From a virus (taxonomy: Duplodnaviria; Heunggongvirae; Uroviricota; Caudoviricetes), in IMG/VR virus record IMGVR_UViG_2870490042_000002: 36,250 nucleotides of DNA. One strand, written 5' to 3'. A program made the position numbers and the translations under genes. The notes under the pieces were generated by a model that was given only the letters and a program-made list of their open reading frames with translations, ran no database searches and was not told the DNA's origin. Positions 2,126-34,739 of this stretch are shown here, piece by piece. Numbering within the stretch: the first letter of the stretch is position 1; each line of letters begins with the position of its first letter.

Positions 2126-2401
2126 ATGAATAGGGTCATTGAGAGCGCGAGCGACGCGGTTCCGTATCAGGAGTTTGCGCGTCTTATTGGTAAAACCCCT
2201 GCTGCTGTCAAAGGGATGATTGAGAAAGGCAAACTACCGATAGTTGAGATGACTGATCCGCAGTCTACAAGTGGGAGAGCAGGGGAATACTGGGTATATC
2301 TGCCAGCATGGAACAAAGGCATGAAGATGGCCTATGACAGTCGCCCTAAAGAAATTCGTGATGGTTGGTTGATGTGGTTGGGATTAGGTGAACCAGCATA
2401 A
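2126..2401 (+). CDS. cox: Cox-like regulatory protein/excisionase (91 aa)
   Basis: 91-aa ORF immediately after C in divergent orientation. Same size and position as P2 Cox. Confidence 0.75.
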   Translation: MNRVIESASDAVPYQEFARLIGKTPAAVKGMIEKGKLPIVEMTDPQSTSGRAGEYWVYLPAWNKGMKMAYDSRPKEIRDGWLMWLGLGEPA

Positions 2402-2411
2402 GGAGCCAGAA

Positions 2412-2582
2412 ATGAAAGAGCCACGTTGTATAGCTCAGTTACTGCGTAACGAAAGTCCACGCCCGATGAAGTTCAACATCACTCATGGTAAAGGGCGTAA
2501 AGGCATCATCATCCGCACTCGCAAGCCTGGATTTATTGCTATGGCTAAACGCTTTATGAAATCCCGAGGGATATCGTTATGA
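2412..2582 (+). CDS. Small hypothetical protein (P2 orf78 position)
   Basis: ORF 2388..2582 trimmed to the ATG at 2412, which has an AGGAG Shine-Dalgarno at 2401-2405. Basic 56-aa product. Confidence 0.45.
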   Translation: MKEPRCIAQLLRNESPRPMKFNITHGKGRKGIIIRTRKPGFIAMAKRFMKSRGISL

Positions 2583-3079
2583 CGGTTATGACTCTTGCAT
2601 TAGTTCAAAAACAACCTGCAGCTCTACGCGTCGTTATAGGAAAGCATCTTGCGGAACCTCGCTGGCACGATACCTGTGATTTTTATAATCAGATGATGGA
2701 GCGTGACCGCTTGACTGTCTGTTTTCATGCTCGGTTAAAACAGCGTCACGCAGTAATGCACTTTGAAGAAATGAATGATGTCGACCGCGAACGTCTGGCT
2801 TGTGCTATCGATGAGCTGCGCGCTGCTTTTTCAAAACGTCGTCAGGTTGGCGCAAGTGAATCTGCATATATTAGTTTTCTAACGGTGGGTCAGCGCCGCT
2901 CTTTATTTCTACACGCGGGATTGAGTGAGGTCGAGTTCAATCAGCCTTACTGGCGCATTGACGAAGATGCTTGTTATTGGCGAGAGAAACTATTCCGCGC
3001 TTTGCGTGAGCTTTTTGGGTTATTTGAACACGCGCCAACGATATTAACCTCGGTAAAGCCTGAGCAGTATTTACATTAA
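2579..3079 (+). CDS. B: Replication protein B-like (166 aa)
   Basis: 166 aa, same length and position as P2 gpB. Start overlaps the upstream stop. Confidence 0.8.
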   Translation: MTVMTLALVQKQPAALRVVIGKHLAEPRWHDTCDFYNQMMERDRLTVCFHARLKQRHAVMHFEEMNDVDRERLACAIDELRAAFSKRRQVGASESAYISFLTVGQRRSLFLHAGLSEVEFNQPYWRIDEDACYWREKLFRALRELFGLFEHAPTILTSVKPEQYLH

Positions 3080-3145
3080 TTAATCTGGATTCGTTTTATT
3101 ACACGCCTTACTGCGTGGGGATTCCTTTTGTCTGGAGATAGGCAA

Positions 3146-3364
3146 ATGCATAAACAAAATAAAGTGCCGACGTGTGTGCTCTCGGTACATCTGGCGCAAG
3201 CGTTGCGCGATGCGCAGCTCGATACCGCGACCCGTTTATCCTCTCATTTTGATCGCCTAATTGCGCACATCAGTAAGTTAGAACTCAACCGCACCGAGAT
3301 CATCGAGCTATTGGGGCAAGAGTCCGAAAAATTGCACAACTCAATTTTTCATTGTGCTTGCTAA
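3146..3364 (+). CDS. Hypothetical early-region protein
   Basis: ORF 3128..3364 starts on TTG; the internal ATG at 3146 is preceded by GGAGATAGG. Position equals P2 orf80-82. Confidence 0.45.
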   Translation: MHKQNKVPTCVLSVHLAQALRDAQLDTATRLSSHFDRLIAHISKLELNRTEIIELLGQESEKLHNSIFHCAC

Positions 3365-3386
3365 TCAATTTTAGAAGGAGACAAAA

Positions 3387-3662
3387 ATGAGTATCCGTAT
3401 CGAGATAAATCATCAGTATGTAGTTACAAGCGATCGCTACCAGTTCATTTTGCAGGAAAAGAAAGTGGCGACTGCTGGAAAAAATAAAGGTAGCGAATGG
3501 CTTGATACTGTCGGGTATTACCCGACGATTCAAAAACTGATTTCTGGTCTGGTGCTACATGACCTTTTAAATGGCGGTGCTGATAGTTTTGCGGCGTTGG
3601 GTGAGCAGGTCGAGCAGTTGGGACTGCAATGTCAGACCGCGTTTTGTGCTGATGGCCGTTGA
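3387..3662 (+). CDS. Hypothetical early-region protein (91 aa)
   Basis: Strong RBS AGAAGGAGA upstream. 3' end overlaps the start of gene A by 11 nt. Confidence 0.55.
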   Translation: MSIRIEINHQYVVTSDRYQFILQEKKVATAGKNKGSEWLDTVGYYPTIQKLISGLVLHDLLNGGADSFAALGEQVEQLGLQCQTAFCADGR

Positions 3663-5943
3663 GACTCGGGGGCGTATTGCCCCCTCGCTAGCCCTGCCAA
3701 TATCTAAGCGCACCGGCGATACTTTCGTTGGTGCTTATCCCTGGAATGCTCCCCGCGCTGCCATTGGCCGTGACAGACCCCTTACACGTGCCGAATTCCG
3801 TCAGGTGCAAGGTGTTTTATACCGGATTGACCGCCTGCCTTTCTTTCTTAAGACGTTGTTTACTTCCCGTTATAACTTCATTCGTCGCACAAAGAGCCCG
3901 CTCGGGGCGCTCTATTTCCTGAAAAACACCTTTGAGCGGAAGCTGTTGCCGCGTCTTGAGCGCGTTAACGAGCTGTGCGGGATGAATGAATCTGCGTCGA
4001 TTGGTTTCTTGTCTGAGCGTGACGAATATGCGCGCTTGCCTGATATGAATGACAAAGAGCTGAAAAAATTTGCGGCCAGAATTGCCGCGCAGCTCTGGCG
4101 TAAATACGAGGAACTCAGCGACGAATGGGCTGAGGCATTCGGCGGTAAAGAGACCCTTTTCACCGATGAGGCGCAGGTGCACATATATGGTCAGGTGGCT
4201 GGTGTTGCACGCGCGTTCAACTTAACCCCGCTCTACTGGAAAAAATACCGTAAGGGTCAGATAACGATCCGCATGGCGTTTTCCGCTATTTCCCGTCTGA
4301 TAAAAGATGATTGGTGGGTTAACCAGCTCAAGGCGCAGCGTATGCGCTGGCGCGAGGCGCTGCTTATCGCTGCCGGTGAAGTCAACAAAGACCGTTCACC
4401 TTACGCCAGCAAAATGGCGATCCGCGAGGTTCACTCGCGCCGGCTGGCTAATCTCGAATACCTGAAATCCTGTGAGCTGGAAAACAAAGTTACCGGCGAA
4501 CGTATCGACCTCATCAGTAAAGTCATGGGGAGTATTTCAAACCCTGAAATACGCCGTATGGAGCTGATGAACACCATTGCCGGAATTGAACGCTATGCGG
4601 CCAGCGTTGGTGATGTGGGAATGTTTATCACGCTGACCACGCCGTCGAAGTATCACCCGACCCGACAGGTCGGCAAAGGTGACAGCAAAACGGTGCAGCT
4701 CAATCACGGCTGGAACGAAACCGCATTCACCCCTAAAAACGGCCAGCGCTATCTGTGCCGAATCTGGAGCCTGATGCGTACCGCTTTCAAAGATAACGAT
4801 TTGGAAGTGTATGGGATGCGCGTTGTCGAGCCGCACCACGACGGCACGCCACACTGGCATATGATGCTTTTTTGCAAACTCAGTCAGCGTAAAGCTATCA
4901 ACGAAATTATGCGTCGTTATGCCCTCAAAGAGGACGGACGCGAAAAGGGCGCGGCAAAACAGCGCTTTGAGTCGCGTCACCTTAATCAGGGGGGCGCGGC
5001 GGGTTATATCGCCAAATACATTGCCAAAAATATCGACGGCTACGCGCTTGACGGTCAGCTCGATCACGATACCGGCAAATCTCTGAAAGATACGGCCGCA
5101 GCCGTAACCGCATGGGCGTCTACATGGCGTATCCCTCAGTTTAAACCGATTGGCCTCCCGACAATGGGCGCTTACCGCGAACTGCGTAAGCTGCCGCGCG
5201 GGGTGAGTATCGCCAGCGAGTTTGACGACCGTGTCGAGGCCGTCCGGGCTGCTGCAGATGAGGGGGAATTTGACCTGTACATCAGCGCGCAGGGTGGGGC
5301 AAACATGCAGCGTGATGCTCAGGCGGTCAGGGTCGCCCGTAAGGTGACGGATGAGGTAAACGAATACGAGGAGGATATCGAGAAAGTGGTCGGTATTTAT
5401 GCCCCTCATCTTGGGGTGAGCCGCGTACATGTAACCCGTACAGCGGAATGGCGCATAGTTCCAAAGGTTTTGGCCGTTGAGCCTTTGACCTTAAAAAGCG
5501 GCTTTGCCGCGCCTCGGAGTCCTGTCAATAACTGTGGAAAGCTTGCCGACGGTGGCGATCCAGTTATGACACCTACACCGTCTGAGCAAGCCGCAGCGGT
5601 GTTAAATTTGATTGAGGCCGGGGTTATCGGCTGGAATGAGCCAGACGTCATGAAGGTTCTTAACGGCGCGTTAAAAGCTGGCGCACCTCGCAATAATCGC
5701 CAGCAAAGAAGCAATGCGCCACTCAAAACGAGCGAGCAAGCTCCATCAGCCAGGATGACAAAACCAGAAAGGGATCGCGTGGCGAAAATTCGTTTCGATT
5801 TGGCTCAGGAGGGCATTACCCCGGAACGGTGGGCGCTCGAAGCGCTGGCGCGTGGGGCAACGGTGATTTATGGCGATAAAAAAATCAAATACGCGGCTGC
5901 TGATGAGTGGCCGGGATTCTCAATTCAAGAGGAGCAGAATTAA
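3652..5943 (+). CDS. A: Rolling-circle replication initiator endonuclease, P2 gpA-like (763 aa)
   Basis: ORF 3571..5943 trimmed to MAVETRGR (P2 A starts MAVKASGR as recalled). Long colinear blocks include EPHHDGTPHWHMM and GGAAGYIAKYIAKNIDGY. Confidence 0.9.
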   Translation: MAVETRGRIAPSLALPISKRTGDTFVGAYPWNAPRAAIGRDRPLTRAEFRQVQGVLYRIDRLPFFLKTLFTSRYNFIRRTKSPLGALYFLKNTFERKLLPRLERVNELCGMNESASIGFLSERDEYARLPDMNDKELKKFAARIAAQLWRKYEELSDEWAEAFGGKETLFTDEAQVHIYGQVAGVARAFNLTPLYWKKYRKGQITIRMAFSAISRLIKDDWWVNQLKAQRMRWREALLIAAGEVNKDRSPYASKMAIREVHSRRLANLEYLKSCELENKVTGERIDLISKVMGSISNPEIRRMELMNTIAGIERYAASVGDVGMFITLTTPSKYHPTRQVGKGDSKTVQLNHGWNETAFTPKNGQRYLCRIWSLMRTAFKDNDLEVYGMRVVEPHHDGTPHWHMMLFCKLSQRKAINEIMRRYALKEDGREKGAAKQRFESRHLNQGGAAGYIAKYIAKNIDGYALDGQLDHDTGKSLKDTAAAVTAWASTWRIPQFKPIGLPTMGAYRELRKLPRGVSIASEFDDRVEAVRAAADEGEFDLYISAQGGANMQRDAQAVRVARKVTDEVNEYEEDIEKVVGIYAPHLGVSRVHVTRTAEWRIVPKVLAVEPLTLKSGFAAPRSPVNNCGKLADGGDPVMTPTPSEQAAAVLNLIEAGVIGWNEPDVMKVLNGALKAGAPRNNRQQRSNAPLKTSEQAPSARMTKPERDRVAKIRFDLAQEGITPERWALEALARGATVIYGDKKIKYAAADEWPGFSIQEEQN

Positions 5944-6401
5944 TGAGCAAAATCCATGAGTTAAAAATTGCACCTGAGTATTTTAACTCTGTGATATCTC
6001 AGGAAAAACGTGCTGAATTTCGTCTCAATGACCGCGATTATTCTAGCGGTGATATTCTCGGGTTGCATGAATGGGAACCGGTAAACAGATATACCGGGAA
6101 ACGTGTATCAGTGAGGGTGACAAACGTTACGGATTTATCTGAATGGGCGGAAAATTATGTGATGCTGAGTTTTCAGTTAATGATGCCAGATGTCCAGTGC
6201 GGTATGTCCCTAATGAACTGGAAAGAGTTAAGCGAGAAGGGGCTTGTTTTCAGAGTTAATCACGAAATTCTACACCCGTTAGGGCTGGCTATTAGATATG
6301 AAACACTTAACAGCGTTTCTGGTAGGGCTTACATCGCTGATGATGGTGTCTGGCAATATTCCGACAAGTTGGTCGCAGATGCTAAAAAAATGGGTGGTTA
6401 A
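5943..6401 (+). CDS. DUF3850/ASCH-like (PUA-fold) protein with an about 80-aa C-terminal extension
   Basis: ATG at 5943 overlaps the gene A stop (TAATG). N-terminus MSKIHELKIAPEYFNSVISQEKRAEFRLNDRDYSSGDILGL matches the DUF3850 pattern as recalled. Confidence 0.6.
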   Translation: MSKIHELKIAPEYFNSVISQEKRAEFRLNDRDYSSGDILGLHEWEPVNRYTGKRVSVRVTNVTDLSEWAENYVMLSFQLMMPDVQCGMSLMNWKELSEKGLVFRVNHEILHPLGLAIRYETLNSVSGRAYIADDGVWQYSDKLVADAKKMGG

Positions 6402-6402
6402 A

Positions 6403-6642
6403 ATGAGTCATATGCGAATGATGCCAGTGCCGCCGATACATTCAACGCAAAACATTAAGCTGATGGCCGTCGTACATCGCCTGCAACAAATTATGATTAA
6501 CGAGAATCTGACCCCTGACGAACTGGTCGGGTGTGCCGGTGTCGTCCGGGATAATCACCGCAAATACAGCGATATCAGCAATCCGAAAATTGAGGCGTTT
6601 CGGCCACCAAATATGGCAAAGCCACCACCGCGTCGACCATAG
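6403..6642 (+). CDS. Possible small ORF (79 aa), hypothetical
   Basis: ATG 2 nt after the upstream stop. No recognisable motif and only a weak RBS; could be non-coding packaging sequence. Confidence 0.2.
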   Translation: MSHMRMMPVPPIHSTQNIKLMAVVHRLQQIMINENLTPDELVGCAGVVRDNHRKYSDISNPKIEAFRPPNMAKPPPRRP

Positions 6643-6924
6643 CAAACGCCGCCGGTGCTGAAACTTGTTTTCAGTGCCAGCGGTGTTGAGCAACGAGCCC
6701 CGCGAGACGTTAGCCTGCACCGTAGAGACCACCCCCAACCGGCACGATTAAAGTCGGTTTTATTATGCAATTTTCCCACAATTTCCCGGTTTTTTAGCCG
6801 TGCATGCAACAGGTGCATTTTTTTGCATGCGTTGGGGATGCCTGTTCTGGCCGCGCGCCGCCAGAGCAGGCGCGGATCCAGAGTGGTCATGCAACTGCAT
6901 TAAAAACGACCCATAAAGCGGGCA

Positions 6925-6943
6925 GGCGAGGCGGGGTAAGCAT
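6925..6943. other. cos site (19-nt cohesive-end sequence GGCGAGGCGGGGTAAGCAT)
   Basis: 17 of 19 identity to the P2 cohesive end GGCGAGGCGGGGAAAGCAC as recalled. Located on the Q side of the packaging genes. Confidence 0.6.
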
Positions 6944-7014
6944 TGCGCGCGCCTGTCAAAGATATTAAGATTGTCTCAAAATCGATTGATTTTATTGAAC
7001 TAATGGAGCTAGGA

Positions 7015-8571
7015 ATGATTAAGGGTATAGGTCTTCAAAACTTCAGGAGCTTTGTCAACAAAACGTTTATTGATTTAAAACCAATTACAGTATTTGTTGG
7101 TAAGAACAGCAGTGGTAAAAGTTCCCTATTGCGCACATTTCCTTTACTTCGTCAATCTGTAGAAGAAAATACTACTGGCCCAATACTATGGTATGGGAGA
7201 TATGTGGATTTTGGCGATTTTACAGATGTACTTTCCCGAAAGTCTGAAAAAAAAGAAATTACGTTTAGTTTTTCACTCTCAATTCCGCCAGAGGTTTCAC
7301 AAAGATATACATATTATCGTTCTACTGATTTAGCAAAGCAACCAACAGATATTGAAGCAGAGTTAACTGTTTACTCTAAAGATAAAAAAACAAAAACGAA
7401 AACGATTAAGCTTATATTGGCTGATTTAACAATATTTATTTCAATGGATGAGAGTAGTAATGTTAAATTACTCATTGAATCAGATGATAAAACAATAGAG
7501 CGTGATGGGATAATAGCTAAAAATCTTGGGCAGTTCATACCAAATCTAATTTTGAAGGGTAAGGAAGACAGTCCTCCTCCAAGCACATCATTCTATTTGA
7601 GACATTCTAGGCATGACAGGGCGTTAGAATTGTCATTTATTGATTCAGCGGCGAAATATATAAAGAAATATTTCCATACTAAATCTGATATAAATCAAGT
7701 GACAGAGGCATTCAAAAGAATTGGCTTTATACCCAAAGCGTACGCTAGTAAATTAGTTGCTTTTCTATTTAAGGAACAAAAAGTTTTTAGTAGAAACTTT
7801 GAATTTCAACATGATGAAATAATGAATGAGTTATATCCATTTATAATTGGATGGAATATTAATAATCTTATAGATATAATAAATACATCCTTGTCAGATT
7901 CATTCAGAAATGTAAAGTACATAGCTCCACTGCGTGCTACATCAGAAAGATTTTATCGTTTTCAAGATTTACAGGTTAATGAGATAGATCATACTGGTTC
8001 CAATCTTGCAATGCTTTTGAATTCATTAAGACCGGCTGATAAATCAAAATTTGAAGATTGGACAAAGTTAAATTTTGATTTCATTATCAAGGTTGAACAA
8101 AGTGGCTCTCACTTTGCAATTTTAATAAATACCGGTGAAAATAGTGAGAACTATAATGTTAGTGATATGGGGTTTGGTTATTCTCAGGTTTTGCCGATAG
8201 TTACAGCCATTTGGCTTGAGACAGAACGTCGTGCTACCACGGTTAGAAAACCTATAACATTTATCATTGAGCAGCCAGAATTGCATTTACATCCGTCATA
8301 TCAGCATAATTTAGCAAGTATTTTTGCAAAAGTAGTAACTAAAGCAAAAGAAAATAATGTAGATTTGAAGATAATTTTTGAGACACATAGCCAGACCATG
8401 ATTGAAGCACTTGGTGAATATATTGAGGAAAATGAAAGTCTTTCACAGGATGATATTTCAATACTGGTATTTGAAAAAGATGATAAGCAGCAGACTATAG
8501 TTAAGAAATCTTATTTTGACGAGAATGGTTTCCTAAAAAATTGGCCGGTTGGCTTTTTCTCGGGTAAGTAG
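7015..8571 (+). CDS. ABC/OLD-type ATPase (AAA_15/AAA_21-like), AriA-like candidate
   Basis: ORF 6943..8571 trimmed to ATG 7015 (RBS GGAG at 7004-7007; the longer ORF would run through cos). Walker A VFVGKNSSGKSS, Walker B-like FIIEQPELHLHP, H-loop FETHS. AT-rich. Confidence 0.8.
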   Translation: MIKGIGLQNFRSFVNKTFIDLKPITVFVGKNSSGKSSLLRTFPLLRQSVEENTTGPILWYGRYVDFGDFTDVLSRKSEKKEITFSFSLSIPPEVSQRYTYYRSTDLAKQPTDIEAELTVYSKDKKTKTKTIKLILADLTIFISMDESSNVKLLIESDDKTIERDGIIAKNLGQFIPNLILKGKEDSPPPSTSFYLRHSRHDRALELSFIDSAAKYIKKYFHTKSDINQVTEAFKRIGFIPKAYASKLVAFLFKEQKVFSRNFEFQHDEIMNELYPFIIGWNINNLIDIINTSLSDSFRNVKYIAPLRATSERFYRFQDLQVNEIDHTGSNLAMLLNSLRPADKSKFEDWTKLNFDFIIKVEQSGSHFAILINTGENSENYNVSDMGFGYSQVLPIVTAIWLETERRATTVRKPITFIIEQPELHLHPSYQHNLASIFAKVVTKAKENNVDLKIIFETHSQTMIEALGEYIEENESLSQDDISILVFEKDDKQQTIVKKSYFDENGFLKNWPVGFFSGK

Positions 8572-8573
8572 TT

Positions 8574-9686
8574 ATGTTGATTAATATCGAAAATGCGACA
8601 CCTGAGAAGGTGCTAAATAACTCATTTGCCATAGCGGTTGAAAATATACTTCGGGCATTCGCTGAACAAAAACACTTGGTTATAGGGGCAAGGGTTTTTT
8701 TTAAAACTATTATCAATGATCAAAGCGGGCTTTATAGCCTTTCATCAAAAAGTTACGCGCAAGAGGCTTTGTCGGGTCTAACAGAGTACTATGCTATCTT
8801 GGATCAGGTCTCATTTTATGTATCTGTCGACTTTAATATTAGTGATAAATCATTTAAATGGGTTCAGATCGGTGAATCTTTTAAATTTGTTTGTGGTCCA
8901 TTGTATTTTAATGACTCGGCACAATTGCAAAAAACGAAAATAGTATGTGAAAATCCTTTGGATTCTGATTTTTTTAAGGTTATAGCGGCTCATTATGCCG
9001 AAGGTATTAACTTATCTCGCTGCGAAATGGGTTTTATCGCTCTAAATGGCGGTGGGGGCAGTACTAAGGATATATTCGAGCGTGCAATTCAAAATAATGA
9101 GATAGTTTTTTGTATTGTGGATAATGACAAAAAACATCCTGGAGCCCCATTCGGAGGTACTTGCTCACATTTTTTGGGCTCACAAATTACTCGCTCAGGT
9201 TTCGTGGAGATTTTAGATGTACATGAAATAGAATCTCTAGTTCCTTTATCGACAATTGAAGATGTATTAAGAAGTCAAAGTCAATTGCAACAAAAAGAAA
9301 AATCTCTCATTTTCTTTAAGCATCTTTGCTCCGTAGATGAATCAGTAAAATTTTATATTGACCATAAAAAAGGTTTTGATTTTAAAACAGCCCTTGAACT
9401 CGATCGAAAACATGGTGCATATTGGCGTCCGATATTAAAGAAGCTTGATATAAAATATGATTGTGAGTATATCGAATCAAAACGTTGTAGCTGCAACGCT
9501 GCTTGTGTAAGTTATGATGGTTTTGGAGAGAATTTGCTCAGCAATACATTGAAATATATACAAAAGGGAAGTTTAAAAAAATATAATCCTCACCTAACAC
9601 CAGTGCTTTCTGATAAATGGTATAAGTTAGGTAAGAATTTCTTTAGTTGGAGTTGTGGTCCATATAAAAAAGCAAGGGTTGGTTAA
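8574..9686 (+). CDS. Partner protein of the ATPase (370 aa), possible Toprim/DUF4435-like nuclease (AriB-like), unconfirmed
   Basis: Starts 2 nt after the ATPase stop, so co-operonic. Contains hydrophobic-E (AIAVEN) and a DxD-type motif (IVFCIVDNDKKH). No HNH or other clear fold recognised by eye. Confidence 0.7.
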   Translation: MLINIENATPEKVLNNSFAIAVENILRAFAEQKHLVIGARVFFKTIINDQSGLYSLSSKSYAQEALSGLTEYYAILDQVSFYVSVDFNISDKSFKWVQIGESFKFVCGPLYFNDSAQLQKTKIVCENPLDSDFFKVIAAHYAEGINLSRCEMGFIALNGGGGSTKDIFERAIQNNEIVFCIVDNDKKHPGAPFGGTCSHFLGSQITRSGFVEILDVHEIESLVPLSTIEDVLRSQSQLQQKEKSLIFFKHLCSVDESVKFYIDHKKGFDFKTALELDRKHGAYWRPILKKLDIKYDCEYIESKRCSCNAACVSYDGFGENLLSNTLKYIQKGSLKKYNPHLTPVLSDKWYKLGKNFFSWSCGPYKKARVG

Positions 9687-9689
9687 ATT

Positions 9690-9716
9690 ATCACAGCCCC
9701 GATAAAGTGGGCTGTG
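9690..9716. terminator. Bidirectional hairpin between convergent cargo operon and Q
   Basis: Perfect 9-bp inverted repeat TCACAGCCC / GGGCTGTGA with a 9-nt loop, followed by a T-rich tract. Confidence 0.5.
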
Positions 9717-9781
9717 ATGTTATTATCTGTGGTTCTTGAGTTACAGGGCTGAATATAATGTTGAGATGTTTATTTTGAAAA

Positions 9782-10789
9782 TCAAAGTGAATATTTTTTA
9801 AATCTTATAACTTCCATTTCTAACCAGTTGTTTAGTTCTTTGAACCGTTCCTGTAAAGGAGTTAACTCATTTCGGACAAACACTTGTGCAGCTTTTACAA
9901 CATCACCAAAACCGCCAACATTGTTAGGCATAATTCCCATCATTTGTGGTGGTACCCTATGAGCACTCAACAAATCTTCTGCACTAACCTTTTTGATATT
10001 GAAAAAATCATCTTTCGTGGCGACTTCACTCAACGGCACAATCTTGATGCCATCCGGTTTGCCGTTGGGCGCGTAGAAAAACAAGTTTTTGAAATTCCCG
10101 AGTCCTTTCGAGTCACGCATCGCGTTGCGGAGCGACTCGACGTCGGTACTGCTTTGCGCGGCGTCGGTGACGTACATGATGTACCCCGCGTGCGCGCCGT
10201 TCTGGTAATACTTGCGGCGAAACAGCGTAGCGGACTCATTCAGCCAGGCAGAATTAAGTGCGCTCAGGTATTCCGGCATCCCGTACAACTCCTGATTGAT
10301 ATCGGGCTCAAGCAGATGGAAAACGGAATCGGGTGCGAACGGGTGCGGCTGGGTGTAGTTCGACACGTACCAGTAAACGCCATCTTCGACACCCCGGCGG
10401 GTGTATTTAGCCGGTGAGGTTTCCAGTTTTAAGAGCTGGCCGGTGACGCTCATGCGCTTCTCAAGATAGCCGTTGGCAAAGACCAGATAATCGAGCACCA
10501 GGCGGCTGAAGTCCTGACGTGACAGCAACGGGTGCGGAATGTAGGTGCTCGCCAGAATGTTACGTTTCACGTAAATCGGCGAGCTGTGATGAACGGAGGC
10601 GCGCAGGCTTTTTGCCAGCCCCGAGAAGTTGACCGGCGGCTCGTACCATTTCCCGTTATTGATACACTCTACGTAGTCGAGAATGTCGCGGCGATCCAGA
10701 ACCGGGGAAGGCACACCAAAGGTGAACGCCTCCATTTTTTGCGGTGTGCTGGCGGTCATGTTGGCGGGTTTCTTCTGTCGTTTTTTCAT
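9782..10789 (-). CDS. Q: Portal protein, P2 gpQ-like
   Basis: 335-aa ORF immediately downstream of P on the reverse strand. Position and size match P2 Q. Confidence 0.85.
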   Translation of the reverse strand: MKKRQKKPANMTASTPQKMEAFTFGVPSPVLDRRDILDYVECINNGKWYEPPVNFSGLAKSLRASVHHSSPIYVKRNILASTYIPHPLLSRQDFSRLVLDYLVFANGYLEKRMSVTGQLLKLETSPAKYTRRGVEDGVYWYVSNYTQPHPFAPDSVFHLLEPDINQELYGMPEYLSALNSAWLNESATLFRRKYYQNGAHAGYIMYVTDAAQSSTDVESLRNAMRDSKGLGNFKNLFFYAPNGKPDGIKIVPLSEVATKDDFFNIKKVSAEDLLSAHRVPPQMMGIMPNNVGGFGDVVKAAQVFVRNELTPLQERFKELNNWLEMEVIRFKKYSL

Positions 10790-18541: not shown

Positions 18542-19591
18542 ATGTCTAACGATGATAAAACATTGAATTTATTCCCCATAGATTATCCATTTGAGACTTT
18601 ATGTTCTAGGATGAAGTCCAATCCCATCAAACTAAAACTGAATCCAGACTTTCAAAGAAAGTACAAATGGGATCAGGACGGATGGCTGCGATCTTCAAAA
18701 TTCATTGAATCTTGTTTAATGCGTATTCCTCTTCCATCTTGTTACTTTGCAGAAGATGATAGCGGCAATCATATTGTAATTGATGGTGTTCAGCGATTAA
18801 CCACAATACAGAAATTTTTTGATGACGAGTTCGCTTTGGAGGGAATGACTACATTTAAAGAGCTTGAAGGGAAAAAGTTTTCTGAATTAGGATCTCTACG
18901 TTCAGAGTTAGAGTCGACAACAATAAGATGCATTGTTCTAAGAAAAGAAAATCCCAAAAAATTAATAAGAGAGATATTTTCTAGACTCAATCAGGGGGCA
19001 GTTAAACTTTCTGATCAAGAAATAAGACATGCGTTATATCCGGGAGGGTTTGATGAATTATTAGAAGAGTTAGGTAATATTGATGCCATTAAAAATTTTG
19101 GTTTGGCGGAAACAACTACAGTAAAAAGAGATAGTCGTGAGCCAGACGAACAAGTTTTGCGTTTTTTTGCATTTTATGAAGATAACTTTTTTGATTACTT
19201 TGATAGCTCCTTGAAAGAATTCTTGGATGATCATATGGAAAAATTTTCAGACTTAAAAGATGATGAACTGAATATTATGAGGGAGAGATTCAAAACATCA
19301 TTATCTAAGTGTGAAAAAATATTTGGTGAAGATGTATTTACAAACCCTACAGTTAGGAGAAAACGTAAAGGGTTAGTTCATTATGACATTTTAATGCCTA
19401 CAATTGGCAAGTTAAATGATGATATTGTAAATGAAAAGTCCGAACAAATACGGAATGCTTGGTTTACTCTTTGTTCAAGTGCTGAGTTCAAAAAAACTTT
19501 ATCAGGTGGGCTACAGAATAAGAGTTCGGTGATGAAGCGTAGGGCTAGTTGGGTGGCACTTCTTAAGGAAGTTATTGATGGAAAATACTGA
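18542..19591 (+). CDS. DUF262 (ParB/Srx-like nuclease/NTPase fold) protein, 349 aa
   Basis: Hallmark N-terminal block FQRKYKWDQDGWLRSSKFIESCLMRIPLPSCYF...IVIDGVQRLTTIQKFF (DGQQR-type motif). No DUF1524/HNH tail recognised. AT-rich. Confidence 0.8.
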   Translation: MSNDDKTLNLFPIDYPFETLCSRMKSNPIKLKLNPDFQRKYKWDQDGWLRSSKFIESCLMRIPLPSCYFAEDDSGNHIVIDGVQRLTTIQKFFDDEFALEGMTTFKELEGKKFSELGSLRSELESTTIRCIVLRKENPKKLIREIFSRLNQGAVKLSDQEIRHALYPGGFDELLEELGNIDAIKNFGLAETTTVKRDSREPDEQVLRFFAFYEDNFFDYFDSSLKEFLDDHMEKFSDLKDDELNIMRERFKTSLSKCEKIFGEDVFTNPTVRRKRKGLVHYDILMPTIGKLNDDIVNEKSEQIRNAWFTLCSSAEFKKTLSGGLQNKSSVMKRRASWVALLKEVIDGKY

Positions 19592-20156
19592 ATACTATGA
19601 TGGATATCGTTCATTATTTTTATCCTTAAAAGAAATTATTAAGGAGACGGAGCAACAGGCTATCCTTGAGGAAAATGAATTCTTCAATAAGAACATTAAT
19701 TTTTTTGTTAAATCGTATCTTATTACACTCTGCACTTATTTAGAGTCGTATTTGACTGAGGTTGCAACATGGCACTGCGATACCATCAATCGCAGGCTCA
19801 AAGCAGCCTGCTTGCCACACAATTTTTTGCTTTGGCGAGTCAAAAAAGATGTTAAAGATAAGGAGTTGAAATATATAGATGCTGATTTAAAGGTTGAGAA
19901 AAGTGAGGTGTCGGATAGCCTGTCTGGTAATCCTTACAAGACGATTAAGGCATTTTCTTATTTGGGTGTTAATCTTTTGAATTCGGCGGAATTTAATGCG
20001 AATAAGGATGTTGTGAATGCAGTGGTTGTAAAGAGAAATAACATTATTCATCATAACGACAATGCAAATGATATTAGTCTCACTGACGTAAGTGGTTATG
20101 TAGATCTGTTTGTATCCTATATGGCTGCGATAGATAATATGGTTTGTGGAAAATAA
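19578..20156 (+). CDS. HEPN-like protein with Rx4H motif (candidate RNase), 192 aa
   Basis: ATG at 19578 has RBS AAGGAAG and overlaps the upstream gene by 14 nt. Candidate catalytic motif in VVVKRNNIIHHNDN (R-x4-H). Family assignment from memory of HEPN-like families, unverified. Confidence 0.65.
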   Translation: MENTEYYDGYRSLFLSLKEIIKETEQQAILEENEFFNKNINFFVKSYLITLCTYLESYLTEVATWHCDTINRRLKAACLPHNFLLWRVKKDVKDKELKYIDADLKVEKSEVSDSLSGNPYKTIKAFSYLGVNLLNSAEFNANKDVVNAVVVKRNNIIHHNDNANDISLTDVSGYVDLFVSYMAAIDNMVCGK

Positions 20157-31942: not shown

Positions 31943-32464
31943 ATGTCAAAGCCAAAATACCCTTTTGAAAAGCGCCTTGAAGTCGTGAATCACTACTTCA
32001 CAACTGATGATGGTTACAGGATCATCTCGGCACGTTTTGGTGTCCCCCGAACCCAGGTCAGGACATGGGTTGCCCTCTATGAAAAACATGGAGAAAAAGG
32101 TTTAATTCCCAAACCTAAAGGCGTTAGTGCTGATCCAGAGTTGCGTATTAAGGTCGTGAAAGCTGTGATCGAGCAGCACATGTCCCTTAATCAGGCTGCT
32201 GCTCACTTTATGCTTGCTGGTAGTGGTTCTGTAGCCAGGTGGCTGAAGGTCTATGAAGAGCGCGGAGAAGCTGGTTTACGCGCGCTCAAGATTGGCACCA
32301 AAAGAAACATTGCAATATCAGTTGATCCAGAAAAAGCGGCATCAGCATTGGAGCTGTCAAAAGACCGACGCATTGAGGATCTTGAAAGGCAAGTTCGATT
32401 TCTTGAAACGCGGCTTATGTATCTAAAAAAGCTGAAAGCCTTAGCTCATCCCACGAAAAAGTGA
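31943..32464 (+). CDS. insJ: IS150 OrfA (InsJ, 173 aa, HTH)
   Basis: MSKPKYPFEKRLEVVNHYFTTDDGYRIISARFGVPRTQVRTWV. IS3-family OrfA with C-terminal leucine zipper. Confidence 0.85.
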   Translation: MSKPKYPFEKRLEVVNHYFTTDDGYRIISARFGVPRTQVRTWVALYEKHGEKGLIPKPKGVSADPELRIKVVKAVIEQHMSLNQAAAHFMLAGSGSVARWLKVYEERGEAGLRALKIGTKRNIAISVDPEKAASALELSKDRRIEDLERQVRFLETRLMYLKKLKALAHPTKK

Positions 32465-33312
32465 AAGTACTCAACGAGCTAAGGCAGTTTTATCCTCTTG
32501 ATGAGCTTCTCAGGGCTGCGGAGATACCGCGCAGTACGTTTTATTATCATCTAAAGGCTCTCAGCAAGCCTGACAAGTATGCGGACGTTAAAAAGCGTAT
32601 TAGTGAGATTTATCACGAGAATAGAGGCCGATACGGATACCGTAGGGTAACGCTGTCTCTTCATCGAGAAGGGAAACAGATTAACCATAAAGCTGTTCAG
32701 CGCCTGATGGGAACCCTCTCACTTAAAGCAGCGATTAAGGTCAAGCGATACCGCTCTTACAGAGGAGAGGTAGGGCAAACCGCCCCTAATGTTCTCCAAA
32801 GAGATTTCAAGGCTACGCGGCCAAACGAGAAGTGGGTTACCGATGTTACTGAATTTGCAGTCAATGGGCGCAAGCTGTATTTGTCTCCAGTAATAGATCT
32901 CTTCAACAACGAAGTTATTTCTTACAGCCTTTCGGAAAGACCAGTGATGAACATGGTTGAGAATATGCTCGATCAGGCATTCAAAAAGCTTAATCCTCAC
33001 GAGCATCCTGTTCTGCACTCTGACCAGGGATGGCAGTATCGTATGAGAAGATATCAAAATATCCTTAAAGAACATGGTATTAAACAAAGCATGTCCAGAA
33101 AAGGCAATTGTCTGGATAATGCTGTGGTGGAGTGTTTCTTTGGAACCTTAAAGTCGGAGTGTTTTTATCTTGATGAGTTCAGTAATATAAGCGAACTGAA
33201 GGATGCTGTTACGGAATATATTGAATACTACAACAGCAGAAGAATTAGCCTGAAATTAAAAGGTCTGACTCCAATTGAATATCGGAATCAGACCTATATG
33301 CCTCGTGTTTAA
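32461..33312 (+). CDS. insK: IS150 OrfB (InsK, DDE transposase catalytic domain)
   Basis: 283-aa ORF in the -1 frame relative to OrfA, GTG start at 32461. IS3-family DDE transposase core. Confidence 0.85.
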
Positions 33313-33627
33313 CTGTCCAACTTTTTGGGGTCAGTACACGAATGCGGGGCTTTTTGCAACTTTTAGATCAGTTATGTTAAGTACATTTCCGTCGGCAAAG
33401 TGCCAGGAGCGGGTTCTAGAGAGTGACTAACGTTAGTTATATGTGTAAAATTCCTTAAAAATAAGAAGGATATATATCCATGACAGCAATTGCATATTGG
33501 ATTAACTGAGAATCAATTGAGAAATTTTTGGGGGGGCAAAAAATAAACTAGCTAATTAAATTTTTATAAATAACGAATATAAGACTGCAAGCCATTTAAC
33601 AAAAGTTTATAAATAAAGGAGTCAGTT

Positions 33628-34479
33628 TTGAACAATATCCCCATATCTACTCAATGGACTTTAGACGCTACGGGTGAAGTTGGACGCTCATCAGTAAATT
33701 CTGTTTATATGATTATATGTCCTGCGACCGGCTCGAAAGGATCTGGTTTTTTAATAGATAATGGGTTAATAGTAACGAACGAGCATGTTATCACTGGATG
33801 CTCTACAAATCAGATTTTCGCAATTTCAGCTTATGGACAGAAGATTCCAATTTCTCAAAAATGGATAGATTCTGATCGCGATTTAGCTGTGCTGAGACCT
33901 GCCATTACCCAGACTGGTGGGCTAAGTATTGTTAAGGATAATGATCTTAAAGTTGGTGAATCAGTAACAACTTGGGGATACCCATTAGGATACAACGGTC
34001 CTGCACCGTTACTATCCGTTGGTTATCTAGCAGGATTTAACTCATACCAAACCGCCAAGGGACAAAAAAAACATCTAGTGGTAAATGGGGCATTTAACTC
34101 AGGAAATTCTGGTGGAGCTCTTTTAAAAGCTTCAGATAATAAAGTAATAGGTATTGTAGTGAGTAAGCATGCTCCTATCAGTCAATACCATCAATCAGCT
34201 ATTGAAGCTTTGTCTGAAAATATGAGTGGCGTCACCTATACCGCTACTAATGACGCTGGAGAAACTAAAAGTTTTGTAGAATCTCAAATTGTAGCAGAAT
34301 TATTGATTCATATGAGAAGTCTAACTCAAGTTATGATTGGAGAAGCAATTGCAGCAGAGGAATTACTTTCGATGCTTAGCGAAATTGACTTGAGTCCACC
34401 ACAATCTATGTCAAGAAATGCCTTATGTCATTGCGGGAGTGGAAAACGCTTCAAAGAATGTCATGGAAAGATATCCTAG
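33628..34479 (+). CDS. Trypsin-like (S1) serine protease with C-terminal SEC-C zinc-binding motif; cargo gene
   Basis: TTG start with RBS AAGGAG 5 nt upstream. Triad candidates His in VTNEHV, Asp in DLAVL, Ser in GNSGGAL. C-terminal CHCGSGKRFKECHG. No signal peptide. AT-rich. Confidence 0.75.
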   Translation: MNNIPISTQWTLDATGEVGRSSVNSVYMIICPATGSKGSGFLIDNGLIVTNEHVITGCSTNQIFAISAYGQKIPISQKWIDSDRDLAVLRPAITQTGGLSIVKDNDLKVGESVTTWGYPLGYNGPAPLLSVGYLAGFNSYQTAKGQKKHLVVNGAFNSGNSGGALLKASDNKVIGIVVSKHAPISQYHQSAIEALSENMSGVTYTATNDAGETKSFVESQIVAELLIHMRSLTQVMIGEAIAAEELLSMLSEIDLSPPQSMSRNALCHCGSGKRFKECHGKIS

Positions 34480-34628
34480 TAAGTACTTATATCAGTCTGA
34501 TAATGGCTCTTCAAATACAAAAGACTTCACTTACTCTGCCGTCATCTCTGCTCCTCGCTTATTGCAGACGGTCAAAAGCTTACAAGCTGTTGACTAGATG
34601 TGTTCTTACATTGTCAGTTAAAACAAAA

Positions 34629-34651
34629 GCCCCGCAAATGCGGGGCTTTTT
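34629..34651 (+). terminator. Rho-independent terminator after the protease cargo gene
   Basis: GCCCCGC-aaat-GCGGGGC followed by TTTTT. Near-identical to the terminator after ogr that is split by IS150. Confidence 0.55.
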
Positions 34652-34712
34652 GTATCGATGTGGTCAATGTGTGGACATTGATAGAAATAAATCCATTTAT
34701 TTCAGTAATTTA

Positions 34713-34739
34713 CATGCAAAAAATAAGCCCGTGTAAGGG
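34713..34739. repeat. attR core (22-bp direct repeat of attL core plus ATGCA), also the 3' end of cyaR
   Basis: Exact repeat of 478-499. Preceded by TGTGGACA (34668-34675) and TATCGATGTGGTCAATG arm sequence. Confidence 0.6.

Follow-up and report, generated by a model that had tools for sequence, protein, structure and literature searches.

The region between positions 6,925 and 9,781 of the DNA analysed here (the window, 36,250 nucleotides (nt) from a virus of the Caudoviricetes, IMG/VR record IMGVR_UViG_2870490042_000002) contains two adjacent genes, gene 1 and gene 2, which encode an ABC ATPase and a putative Toprim-type nuclease effector. Together they probably form an autonomous two-gene anti-phage cassette that a P2-like prophage carries as accessory cargo in its cos-proximal gpA-gpQ hotspot; a probability of about 0.72 is given to this reading, and that the cassette is a defence system is very likely. 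The description that fits the pair best is an ABC ATPase of the NsnB type (DUF3696) combined with a Toprim effector like PDC-M55B; on the ATPase side it is 'Menshen without NsnA', and it is not PARIS. It is already catalogued, without a name, and its family is widespread and distinct from PARIS. Table S5 of Rousset et al. (2022) holds exactly these two proteins as system #36, 'AAA_15/AAA_21/AAA_23', with 105 occurrences and no comment.

Position and layout of the cassette

The host prophage is a P2-like prophage of Escherichia coli, and the region is 100% identical to NZ_CP028578.2, where it is integrated beside yegR/yegS. The gpA-gpQ interval is a defence hotspot of P2 (Rousset et al. 2022), and the cassette is placed in this interval, adjoining cos, by the gene order A (3571-5943), cos, cassette and Q (9782-10789). 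The cos sequence has 2 mismatches to that of P2, and no match arose across 100 shuffles. Portal gene Q is encoded on the minus strand with its 3' end at 9782 and is convergent with gene 2.

An earlier sequence-only reading of this DNA had described an AT-rich operon of two tightly coupled genes, 2 nt apart, between cos and the 3' end of Q, and this description is borne out by the open reading frames (ORFs) and their junction. Both ORFs are on the plus strand (gene 1, 6943 (TTG) or 7015 (ATG) to 8571; gene 2, 8574-9686), and the junction reads GGT AAG TAG tt ATG, leaving a 2-nt spacer. The GC content is 30-37% over positions 7000-9800 versus 52-60% for the flanking phage genes, which suggests a foreign origin of the cassette. 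A search for repeats found short ones at chance level only and no flanking direct repeats marking insertion. Both genes are considered real rather than chance ORFs, because the cassette DNA matches annotated genes of E. coli chromosomes at 100% identity and both proteins have strong homologs (E=0 for gene 1 and down to E=1e-247 for gene 2).

Gene 1 most likely starts at the ATG at 7015 (518 amino acids (aa)) rather than at the TTG at 6943 (542 aa). The ATG has a GGAG Shine-Dalgarno sequence, is used by PGAP and is the start of all homologs. The TTG falls within the cos sequence itself, so that longest-ORF callers add 24 probably spurious N-terminal residues; the entry in Table S5B of Rousset et al. 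uses this longest form. The hairpin between gene 2 and Q (Table 1) was read directly from the sequence; the scanner covers loops of up to 8 nt and does not list it.

Table 1. Features of the two-gene cassette and its boundaries, in window coordinates
Feature	Position	Strand	Remarks
P2-type cos cohesive-end sequence	6925..6943		GGCGAGGCGGGGTAAGCAT; left boundary, cassette begins 72 nt rightward
Gene 1, NsnB/DUF3696-type ABC ATPase, 518 aa	7015..8571	+	Pfam, PADLOC; RefSeq WP_047149157
Walker A/P-loop GKNSSGKS	7099..7122	+	Residues 29-36 of the 518-aa form
Hypervariable insert, about residues 85-290	7270..7880	+	Almost no conserved columns in the alignment of 7 ATPases
ABC signature-motif position, DMGFGYSQ	8164..8187	+	GxG variant rather than canonical SGG; alignment of 7 ATPases
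Walker B IEQPELHLHP	8266..8295	+	Gln at the canonical catalytic-Glu position
H-loop ETHS	8380..8391	+	E456, T457, H458 and S459 invariant in 7 ATPases
C-terminal DUF3696 tail, ending in NWPxGFF	8443..8559	+	Pfam match at residues 501-539 of the 542-aa form
Gene 2, putative effector, 370 aa	8574..9686	+	WP_000906719; translationally coupled to gene 1
Effector N-terminal Rossmann-like alpha/beta domain, residues 1-119	8574..8930	+	Candidate adaptor docking to the ATPase
Predicted OLD-type Toprim core, about residues 120-235	8931..9278	+	E126, D130, G159-G161, D183xD185, E218xE220
C-terminal helical Cys-rich region, residues 236-370	9279..9683	+	D263-x-K265-x-G267; Cys at family positions 299, 305, 311 and 361
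Perfect 10-bp hairpin, likely terminator	9690..9718		ATCACAGCCC-N9-GGGCTGTGAT; between convergent gene 2 and Q

Structure of the ATPase and the effector

Gene 1 matches the Pfam families AAA_15 (1.9e-27) and AAA_21 (1.3e-18), the two profiles that the sequence-only reading had singled out for comparison, together with DUF3696 (3.8e-07), and the RefSeq name of its product is 'DUF3696 domain-containing protein'. Its best PADLOC model is NsnB (6.5e-55, covering profile positions 1-332 of 345), followed by PDC-M55A (7.1e-46) and HEC-03B (1.6e-37). NsnB belongs to Menshen, which is composed of contiguous NsnA (ParB-DUF262 + ParBDB), NsnB and NsnC (Millman 2022, Li et al. 2025), and is characterized by a C-terminal DUF3696, a Walker B with EN instead of DE, and GxG replacing SGG (PMC12065111). 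The corresponding features of gene 1 are the NsnB match, DUF3696, IEQPE and DMGFGYSQ. In the PDB, the top matches of the gene 1 family profile are Thermus OLD, PtuA, Rad50 and the Eco8 OLD nuclease, while AriA and GajA were retrieved neither by gene 1 nor by the family profile (for AriA at E up to 1). With clustering at 90% identity and E <=1e-10, the family numbers over 4,100 clusters.

The conservation of gene 1 motifs was assessed in an alignment of 7 ATPases with 33-80% identity. Invariant positions are dense over residues 1-70 and 293-518, whereas residues 85-290 have hardly any conserved ones, and this hypervariable insert may be considered a candidate sensing surface. Invariant positions include G29, N31, S32, S33, G34, K35 and S36 of Walker A (position 30 is K or Q), D384, M385, G386, F387, G388, S390 and Q391 of the signature (DMGFG[YF]SQ), and N509, W510, P511, G513, F514 and F515 of the tail. 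Walker B is invariant from I418 to P427, from E. coli to a cyanobacterium. This includes Q420, indicating that the glutamine is a trait of the family and not a lesion. Engineered E-to-Q mutants of ABC ATPases, which trap ATP, resemble this natural Walker B. The DUF3696 tail is predicted, by analogy with Menshen, to be a docking element for the effector: in AlphaFold 3 models of that system, the paired NsnB tails clamp the N-terminal domain of NsnC (Li et al. 2025).

Gene 2 has no Pfam match at E up to 1 and no PHROG match at E up to 0.001. NCBIfam gave nothing meaningful (one spurious match with E 0.012, far under its cut-off), and sequence and profile searches of the PDB with the effector family found nothing meaningful either. 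PDC-M55B is the only PADLOC model that gene 2 matches, and it does so weakly (2.1e-4). A word-indexed search found 31 clusters, mostly from Enterobacterales, and the cluster of the window effector holds 134 member sequences. An exhaustive profile search extended the family to 1,858 representatives at 50% clustering, nearly all of full length (~370 aa); the family is thus large yet without a Pfam or PHROG model.

The AlphaFold2 model of gene 2 (predicted local distance difference test score (pLDDT) 88.3, predicted template modelling score 0.87) was read together with the conservation among 53 diverse family members of 19-43% identity. E126, G161, D183, D185, E220 and W359 are invariant in 53/53, and H34, D130, G159, C180, P189, T196, P224, D263, K265, G267, W284, C299, C305, W349 are conserved in more than 90%, with D130, K265, D263 and G267 kept in more than 96%. 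The putative catalytic set of E126, D130, D183, D185, E218/E220 and K265 is invariant or more than 88% conserved, and the Toprim residues sit at strand ends in the model. The two-metal machinery of BpOLD consists of E400, E404, D455, D457, T506, E508 and K562 (PMC6755086). The spacing of +4/+57/+59 in gene 2 mirrors that of E400/E404/D455/D457, and E126, D130, D183, D185, E218, E220 and K265 match the whole BpOLD series in order with similar spacing, so E218, E220 and K265 are inferred to correspond to the last three residues of that series. From this agreement and from the model, gene 2 is predicted to carry an OLD-type two-metal Toprim nuclease core, with K265 as the candidate catalytic lysine.

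The motifs that had been quoted for the two genes, GKNSSGKSS, IIEQPELHLHP and the ETHS H-loop in gene 1 and AIAVEN and IVDND in gene 2, are all present in the window, and the DxD of IVDND (D183, D185) retains its proposed Toprim role as an invariant pair. The Glu of AIAVEN, which had been put forward as a possible Toprim glutamate, is Ser or Thr in distant homologs, and the conserved Glu is E126 in CENPLDSDF.

The predicted nuclease core is flanked by two further domains. The N-terminal domain, modelled alone, reached a pLDDT of 94.7 and gave generic Rossmann-like matches only. The Cys-rich C-terminal domain possibly harbours a Zn site. The pLDDT of the model falls to 55-60 at residues 290-310, as might fit an unmodelled metal site.

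Distribution, function and alternative explanations

The association of gene 2 with an ATPase, which had been raised from the sequence alone, recurs in other genomes. Nine contexts of the pair were examined, including the window prophage, and the identity of the partner was confirmed by alignment for eight. The ATPase and its partner are adjacent in 9/9, mostly overlapping or with a gap of up to 3 nt (48 nt in Geitlerinema), and the eight aligned partners keep all catalytic residues. No DUF262 gene is adjacent to the cassette in the window or present within 4-8 kb in the 8 other contexts. The pair occupies the same gpA-portal position in a P2/186-like prophage of Rahnella and, in P4-like satellites of Pectobacterium, lies between Ogr/Delta and the integrase (the P4-satellite hotspot). 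A homologous pair (locus coordinates 2399-5035; effector 27% identical over 97% of the query) is located beside repressor and excisionase at one end of the genome of Pseudomonas phage 62-2 (OR621022.1), a Pf-like inovirus (Tubulavirales) of 12.6 kb, whose depositors named the ATPase gene 'Rad50 ATPase' and the effector gene 'putative OLD family nuclease'; the cassette therefore also travels on filamentous phages. Outside phages and satellites, the pair is encountered in a Frischella island beside ABC-3C/CBASS-associated genes (CTD12, MC6/MC8), in an Arcobacter island beside SLFN-helicase/nSTAND genes and another AAA_15, as a standalone locus in Vibrio, and near BrxL in the cyanobacterium Geitlerinema. 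In Thiothrix unzii (CP072793.1, locus 5338-8001), the ATPase is split into 313-aa and 199-aa parts by an insertion sequence (IS) element and the effector is intact. This element contains a helix-turn-helix domain and a DDE_3 transposase, and a BrnT/BrnA toxin-antitoxin pair lies just downstream. Within E. coli the cassette is sporadic, being present in 39/5426 complete genomes from diverse sources with 98-100% conservation. At 2.7 kb the cassette is compact, and it moves among P2-like phages, P4-like satellites, Pf-like inoviruses and chromosomal islands. A role in defence is supported by its place in the P2 and P4 hotspots, by its defence-related neighbours elsewhere, by the matches of most effector relatives to the defence candidate PDC-M55B, and by its sporadic occurrence and AT-rich composition.

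Several observations weigh against a functional defence cassette of the proposed kind. No phage-challenge data were found for the pair, the sequences are not among the systems tested by Rousset et al., and the protein accessions of the pair were not found in the searchable literature. A promoter scan found no convincing sigma-70 promoter between cos and gene 1, promoter-like sites being no commoner than in shuffled sequence. No PIN domain was detected among the structure matches of the separately modelled effector N-domain; the domain is not demonstrably PIN-like, which makes the docking analogy with NsnC tentative. Residue 299 of the window effector (9468-9470) is Tyr where 49/53 relatives have Cys, which could affect a metal site, although Cys297 and Cys307 flank this position and could substitute. 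Finally, the sequester-and-release mechanism outlined below is drawn entirely by analogy. As to the related families, no mention of PDC-M55 was found in the literature, DUF3696 is mentioned in 4 papers only, and the main text of a 2026 preprint on P2/P4 hotspots names neither Menshen, DUF3696 nor PDC-M55.

The data show the domain identities, the conserved catalytic residues, the strict pairing of the two genes and their carriage on mobile elements and in defence islands; the mechanism was modelled on PARIS, Septu, Gabija and the predicted NsnB-NsnC complex of Menshen. An ATPase oligomer would hold the nuclease inactive, with paired DUF3696 tails clamping the effector N-domain. The hypervariable insert would sense a phage product, and an ATP-dependent conformational change would release or activate the nuclease. 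With Gln naturally occupying the place of the catalytic Glu, this switch may hydrolyse ATP slowly. The freed nuclease might cut tRNA or other RNA, as AriB does, or DNA, as OLD and GajA do, and competing phages would be blocked, probably via abortive infection. In its specifics this scheme is tentative, with somewhat less than an even chance of being correct.

A further proposal, which is unlikely in full, is that the pair represents a large autonomous 'sensor-less Menshen' lineage, in which the DUF3696 ATPase senses phages through its hypervariable insert and acts as an ATP-bound latch, naturally impaired in hydrolysis (E-Q), on a new Toprim nuclease that bears Zn and has a substrate unlike those of AriB and OLD. 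At 50% identity such a lineage would number about 1,900 effector clusters, and Pfam has no family for it.

The cassette might instead be a selfish or phage-serving module, either an addiction or toxin-antitoxin-like pair that keeps the element stable or a weapon in the conflict between P2 helpers and P4 satellites. P2-like helpers and P4-like satellites both carry it beside cos, the Pfam description of AAA_21 reads 'putative AbiEii toxin, Type IV TA system', toxicity of the nuclease is conceivable, and hotspot systems can act between P2 relatives (Rousset et al.). However, the cassette is also found in chromosomal defence islands, at the standalone Vibrio locus and in a cyanobacterium, and this occurrence beyond phages and satellites points to a general function that is not specific to P2 and P4. 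Moreover, validated ABC-ATPase/effector pairs such as PARIS and HEC-03 need both genes for defence. In PARIS, the deletion of either gene is non-toxic, which excludes a toxin-antitoxin reading of that system. Exclusion between phages would still defend the host, so that this explanation, quite unlikely in itself, partly overlaps that of a defence cassette.

The sequence-only reading had matched the pair to PARIS, and it shares with PARIS the design of an ABC ATPase gene and a separate Toprim effector gene, so that a PARIS-like way of working is plausible. Membership is not upheld. A divergent but genuine PARIS, in which the ATPase frees the Toprim effector on sensing, for example, Ocr and the effector cleaves host tRNAs, is very improbable. 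In its favour are the two-gene architecture, the fact that PARIS itself came from the corresponding hotspot near cos in P4-like satellites (Rousset 2022), the matches of gene 1 to the PADLOC 'AriA' models (373 and 304 positions; 3.4e-31), and the fact that hhalign puts E126, D130 and G161 in register with E37, D41 and G65 of AriB. The comparison of gene 2 with DUF4435 (PF14491), proposed at the same time, found no match in gene 2 or its 52 relatives (0/53), whereas all 33 listed homologs of PARIS-1 AriB (Rousset Table S2), used as positive control, carry PF14491. The alignment of the effector profile with the AriB profile by hhalign is not significant (3% probability, P 0.015; 3-5% over profile and single-sequence versions), and structurally AriB is no closer to gene 2 than BpOLD or TsOLD. 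With DUF4435 absent and hhalign non-significant, the effector is considered an OLD-type Toprim protein no nearer to AriB than to OLD. It is also longer than AriB (370 versus 308 aa), having an additional N-domain of 119 residues and the Cys-rich C-domain. The 'AriA' matches appear generic, because the lengths and regions of these models nearly equal those of Pfam AAA_15/AAA_21; NsnB and PDC-M55A score above them for gene 1, which has a DUF3696 tail, and AriA was absent from the PDB retrievals. DUF4435-based criteria for PARIS should therefore not label this locus PARIS, and a tempting mislabel is corrected. A resemblance to AbiL, suggested alongside PARIS, was likewise rejected, the match to AbiLi being weak (3.8e-14, far below NsnB) and gene 2 having no AbiLii match at E up to 0.01. 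The accompanying hedge of a new ATPase-effector pair came closest to the outcome.

A second AT-rich island (18542-20156, GC 34-42%) lies between a virion-morphogenesis gene and the baseplate gene V, about 9 kb from the cassette. It contains a gene (18542-19591) for a 349-aa DUF262/GmrSD_N protein with PADLOC matches to NsnA (6.6e-80) and PD-T4-2_A (9.5e-43), overlapping by 17 nt the gene for a 193-aa RiboL-PSP HEPN protein, which has no PADLOC match. The two-gene, self-contained PD-T4-2 is published as containing the domains DUF262 and PF18735 (PMC10952713), and the island is PD-T4-2-like as judged from its predicted domains. It is present in 30/5426 E. coli genomes and is interrupted by ISKpn26 in NZ_CP021175.1.

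The bolder view that this NsnA-like DUF262 protein cross-talks with the cassette at 7015-9686, acting in trans as its sensor, as in a Menshen split over two hotspots, can hardly be right. The DUF262 protein fits NsnA better than PD-T4-2_A, NsnB is the best PADLOC model of gene 1, and the cassette is likewise present in 29 of the 30 island-bearing E. coli genomes. However, these 29 co-occurrences are not independent, because they represent one near-identical prophage (~100% identity, many isolates of one lineage). A further 10 genomes have the cassette only and 1 has the island only. Strain EC11 keeps the same prophage backbone and cassette with a different cargo at the S/V hotspot. The DUF262 gene has its own HEPN partner, Menshen by definition requires contiguous NsnA-NsnB-NsnC, and the absence of DUF262 genes around the other cassettes also makes a split system unlikely.

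That the cassette is a decaying remnant, inactivated by C299Y or the Walker B Gln and persisting as a hitch-hiker of the prophage, is extremely doubtful: the Tyr at position 299, the adjoining DUF3850/ASCH gene annotated as frameshifted and the IS-split Thiothrix ATPase would fit it, but both ORFs are intact with all Toprim, Walker A and H-loop residues kept, the Gln is invariant family-wide, neighbouring cysteines could substitute at 299, and the conservation in 39 genomes and the cluster of 134 effector sequences stand against decay.

Two other parts of the window were noted. On the A side of cos, which is the classical old/tin side, positions 5907-6642 hold the DUF3850/ASCH gene followed by a small hypothetical gene; the former is frameshifted in the RefSeq annotation of this prophage and intact in strain EC11. 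A third AT-rich stretch (31943-34736, GC 37-46%), possibly more accessory cargo, includes a transposase encoded by two ORFs (31943-32464 and 32461-33312), which match PHROG transposase families (up to 1.5e-107). Behind it come a 283-aa ORF, whose PHROG 'protease' matches are weak, and a 103-aa ORF without match.

Comparison with known systems

Pairs of an ABC ATPase and an effector, among them PARIS, Septu, Gabija and Menshen, are increasingly seen as one of the main designs in bacterial immunity. For the question of how their ATPases sense infection, the cassette provides a natural comparison with Menshen: the same type of ATPase is found without the DUF262 sensor, which bears on whether NsnB-type ATPases sense phages alone and on the role of the DUF3696 tail.

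Gene 1 resembles NsnB in its DUF3696 tail, its GxG signature and its non-canonical Walker B, which has E-Q where NsnB has E-N. NsnC has an N-terminal inactive-PIN domain and a C-terminal effector domain, which in some NsnC proteins has a Toprim fold. The cassette effector has a similar overall layout, with an N-terminal alpha/beta domain, not demonstrably PIN-like, followed by the predicted C-terminal nuclease. In contrast with Menshen, none of the 9 cassette contexts has an adjacent NsnA, and the Toprim domain is neither DUF4276 nor RloB and is supplemented by the Cys-rich C-domain.

HEC-03, a validated pair of an ABC ATPase and a VapC-like PIN ribonuclease, both genes of which are required, has no DUF262 component (Payne et al. 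2024), indicating that ATPases related to the DUF3696 type can work without such a sensor. The cassette shares with it the two-gene organization and a related ATPase, the HEC-03B model matching the C-terminal part of gene 1, but its partner is a predicted Toprim nuclease and not a PIN ribonuclease. PDC systems in PADLOC are guilt-by-embedding candidates (Payne et al. 2024). PDC-M55 is likewise an ATPase and partner pair, its PDC-M55A model being second only to NsnB for gene 1, and PDC-M55B is matched by 41/53 effector family members (best E 4.4e-11). The window effector matches it only weakly (19 bits, profile positions 100-255 of 315, residues 123-281). This match covers the Toprim core but extends only into the beginning of the C-domain, so that the terminal domains of the effector either differ from those of PDC-M55B or are poorly covered by it.

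Compared with OLD and Gabija GajA, in which the ATPase and Toprim domains are fused, the cassette encodes them in separate ORFs, divided by a stop codon and 2 nt, and its ATPase has the DUF3696 tail and the Walker B E-Q. Gabija and class 2 OLD systems differ further, as no GajB or UvrD-like helicase gene is located downstream of the cassette, where Q is next. The likeness to OLD lies in gene 2, whose predicted two-metal catalytic set consists of E, E/D at +4, DxD, a distal acidic pair and a Lys in the helical domain.

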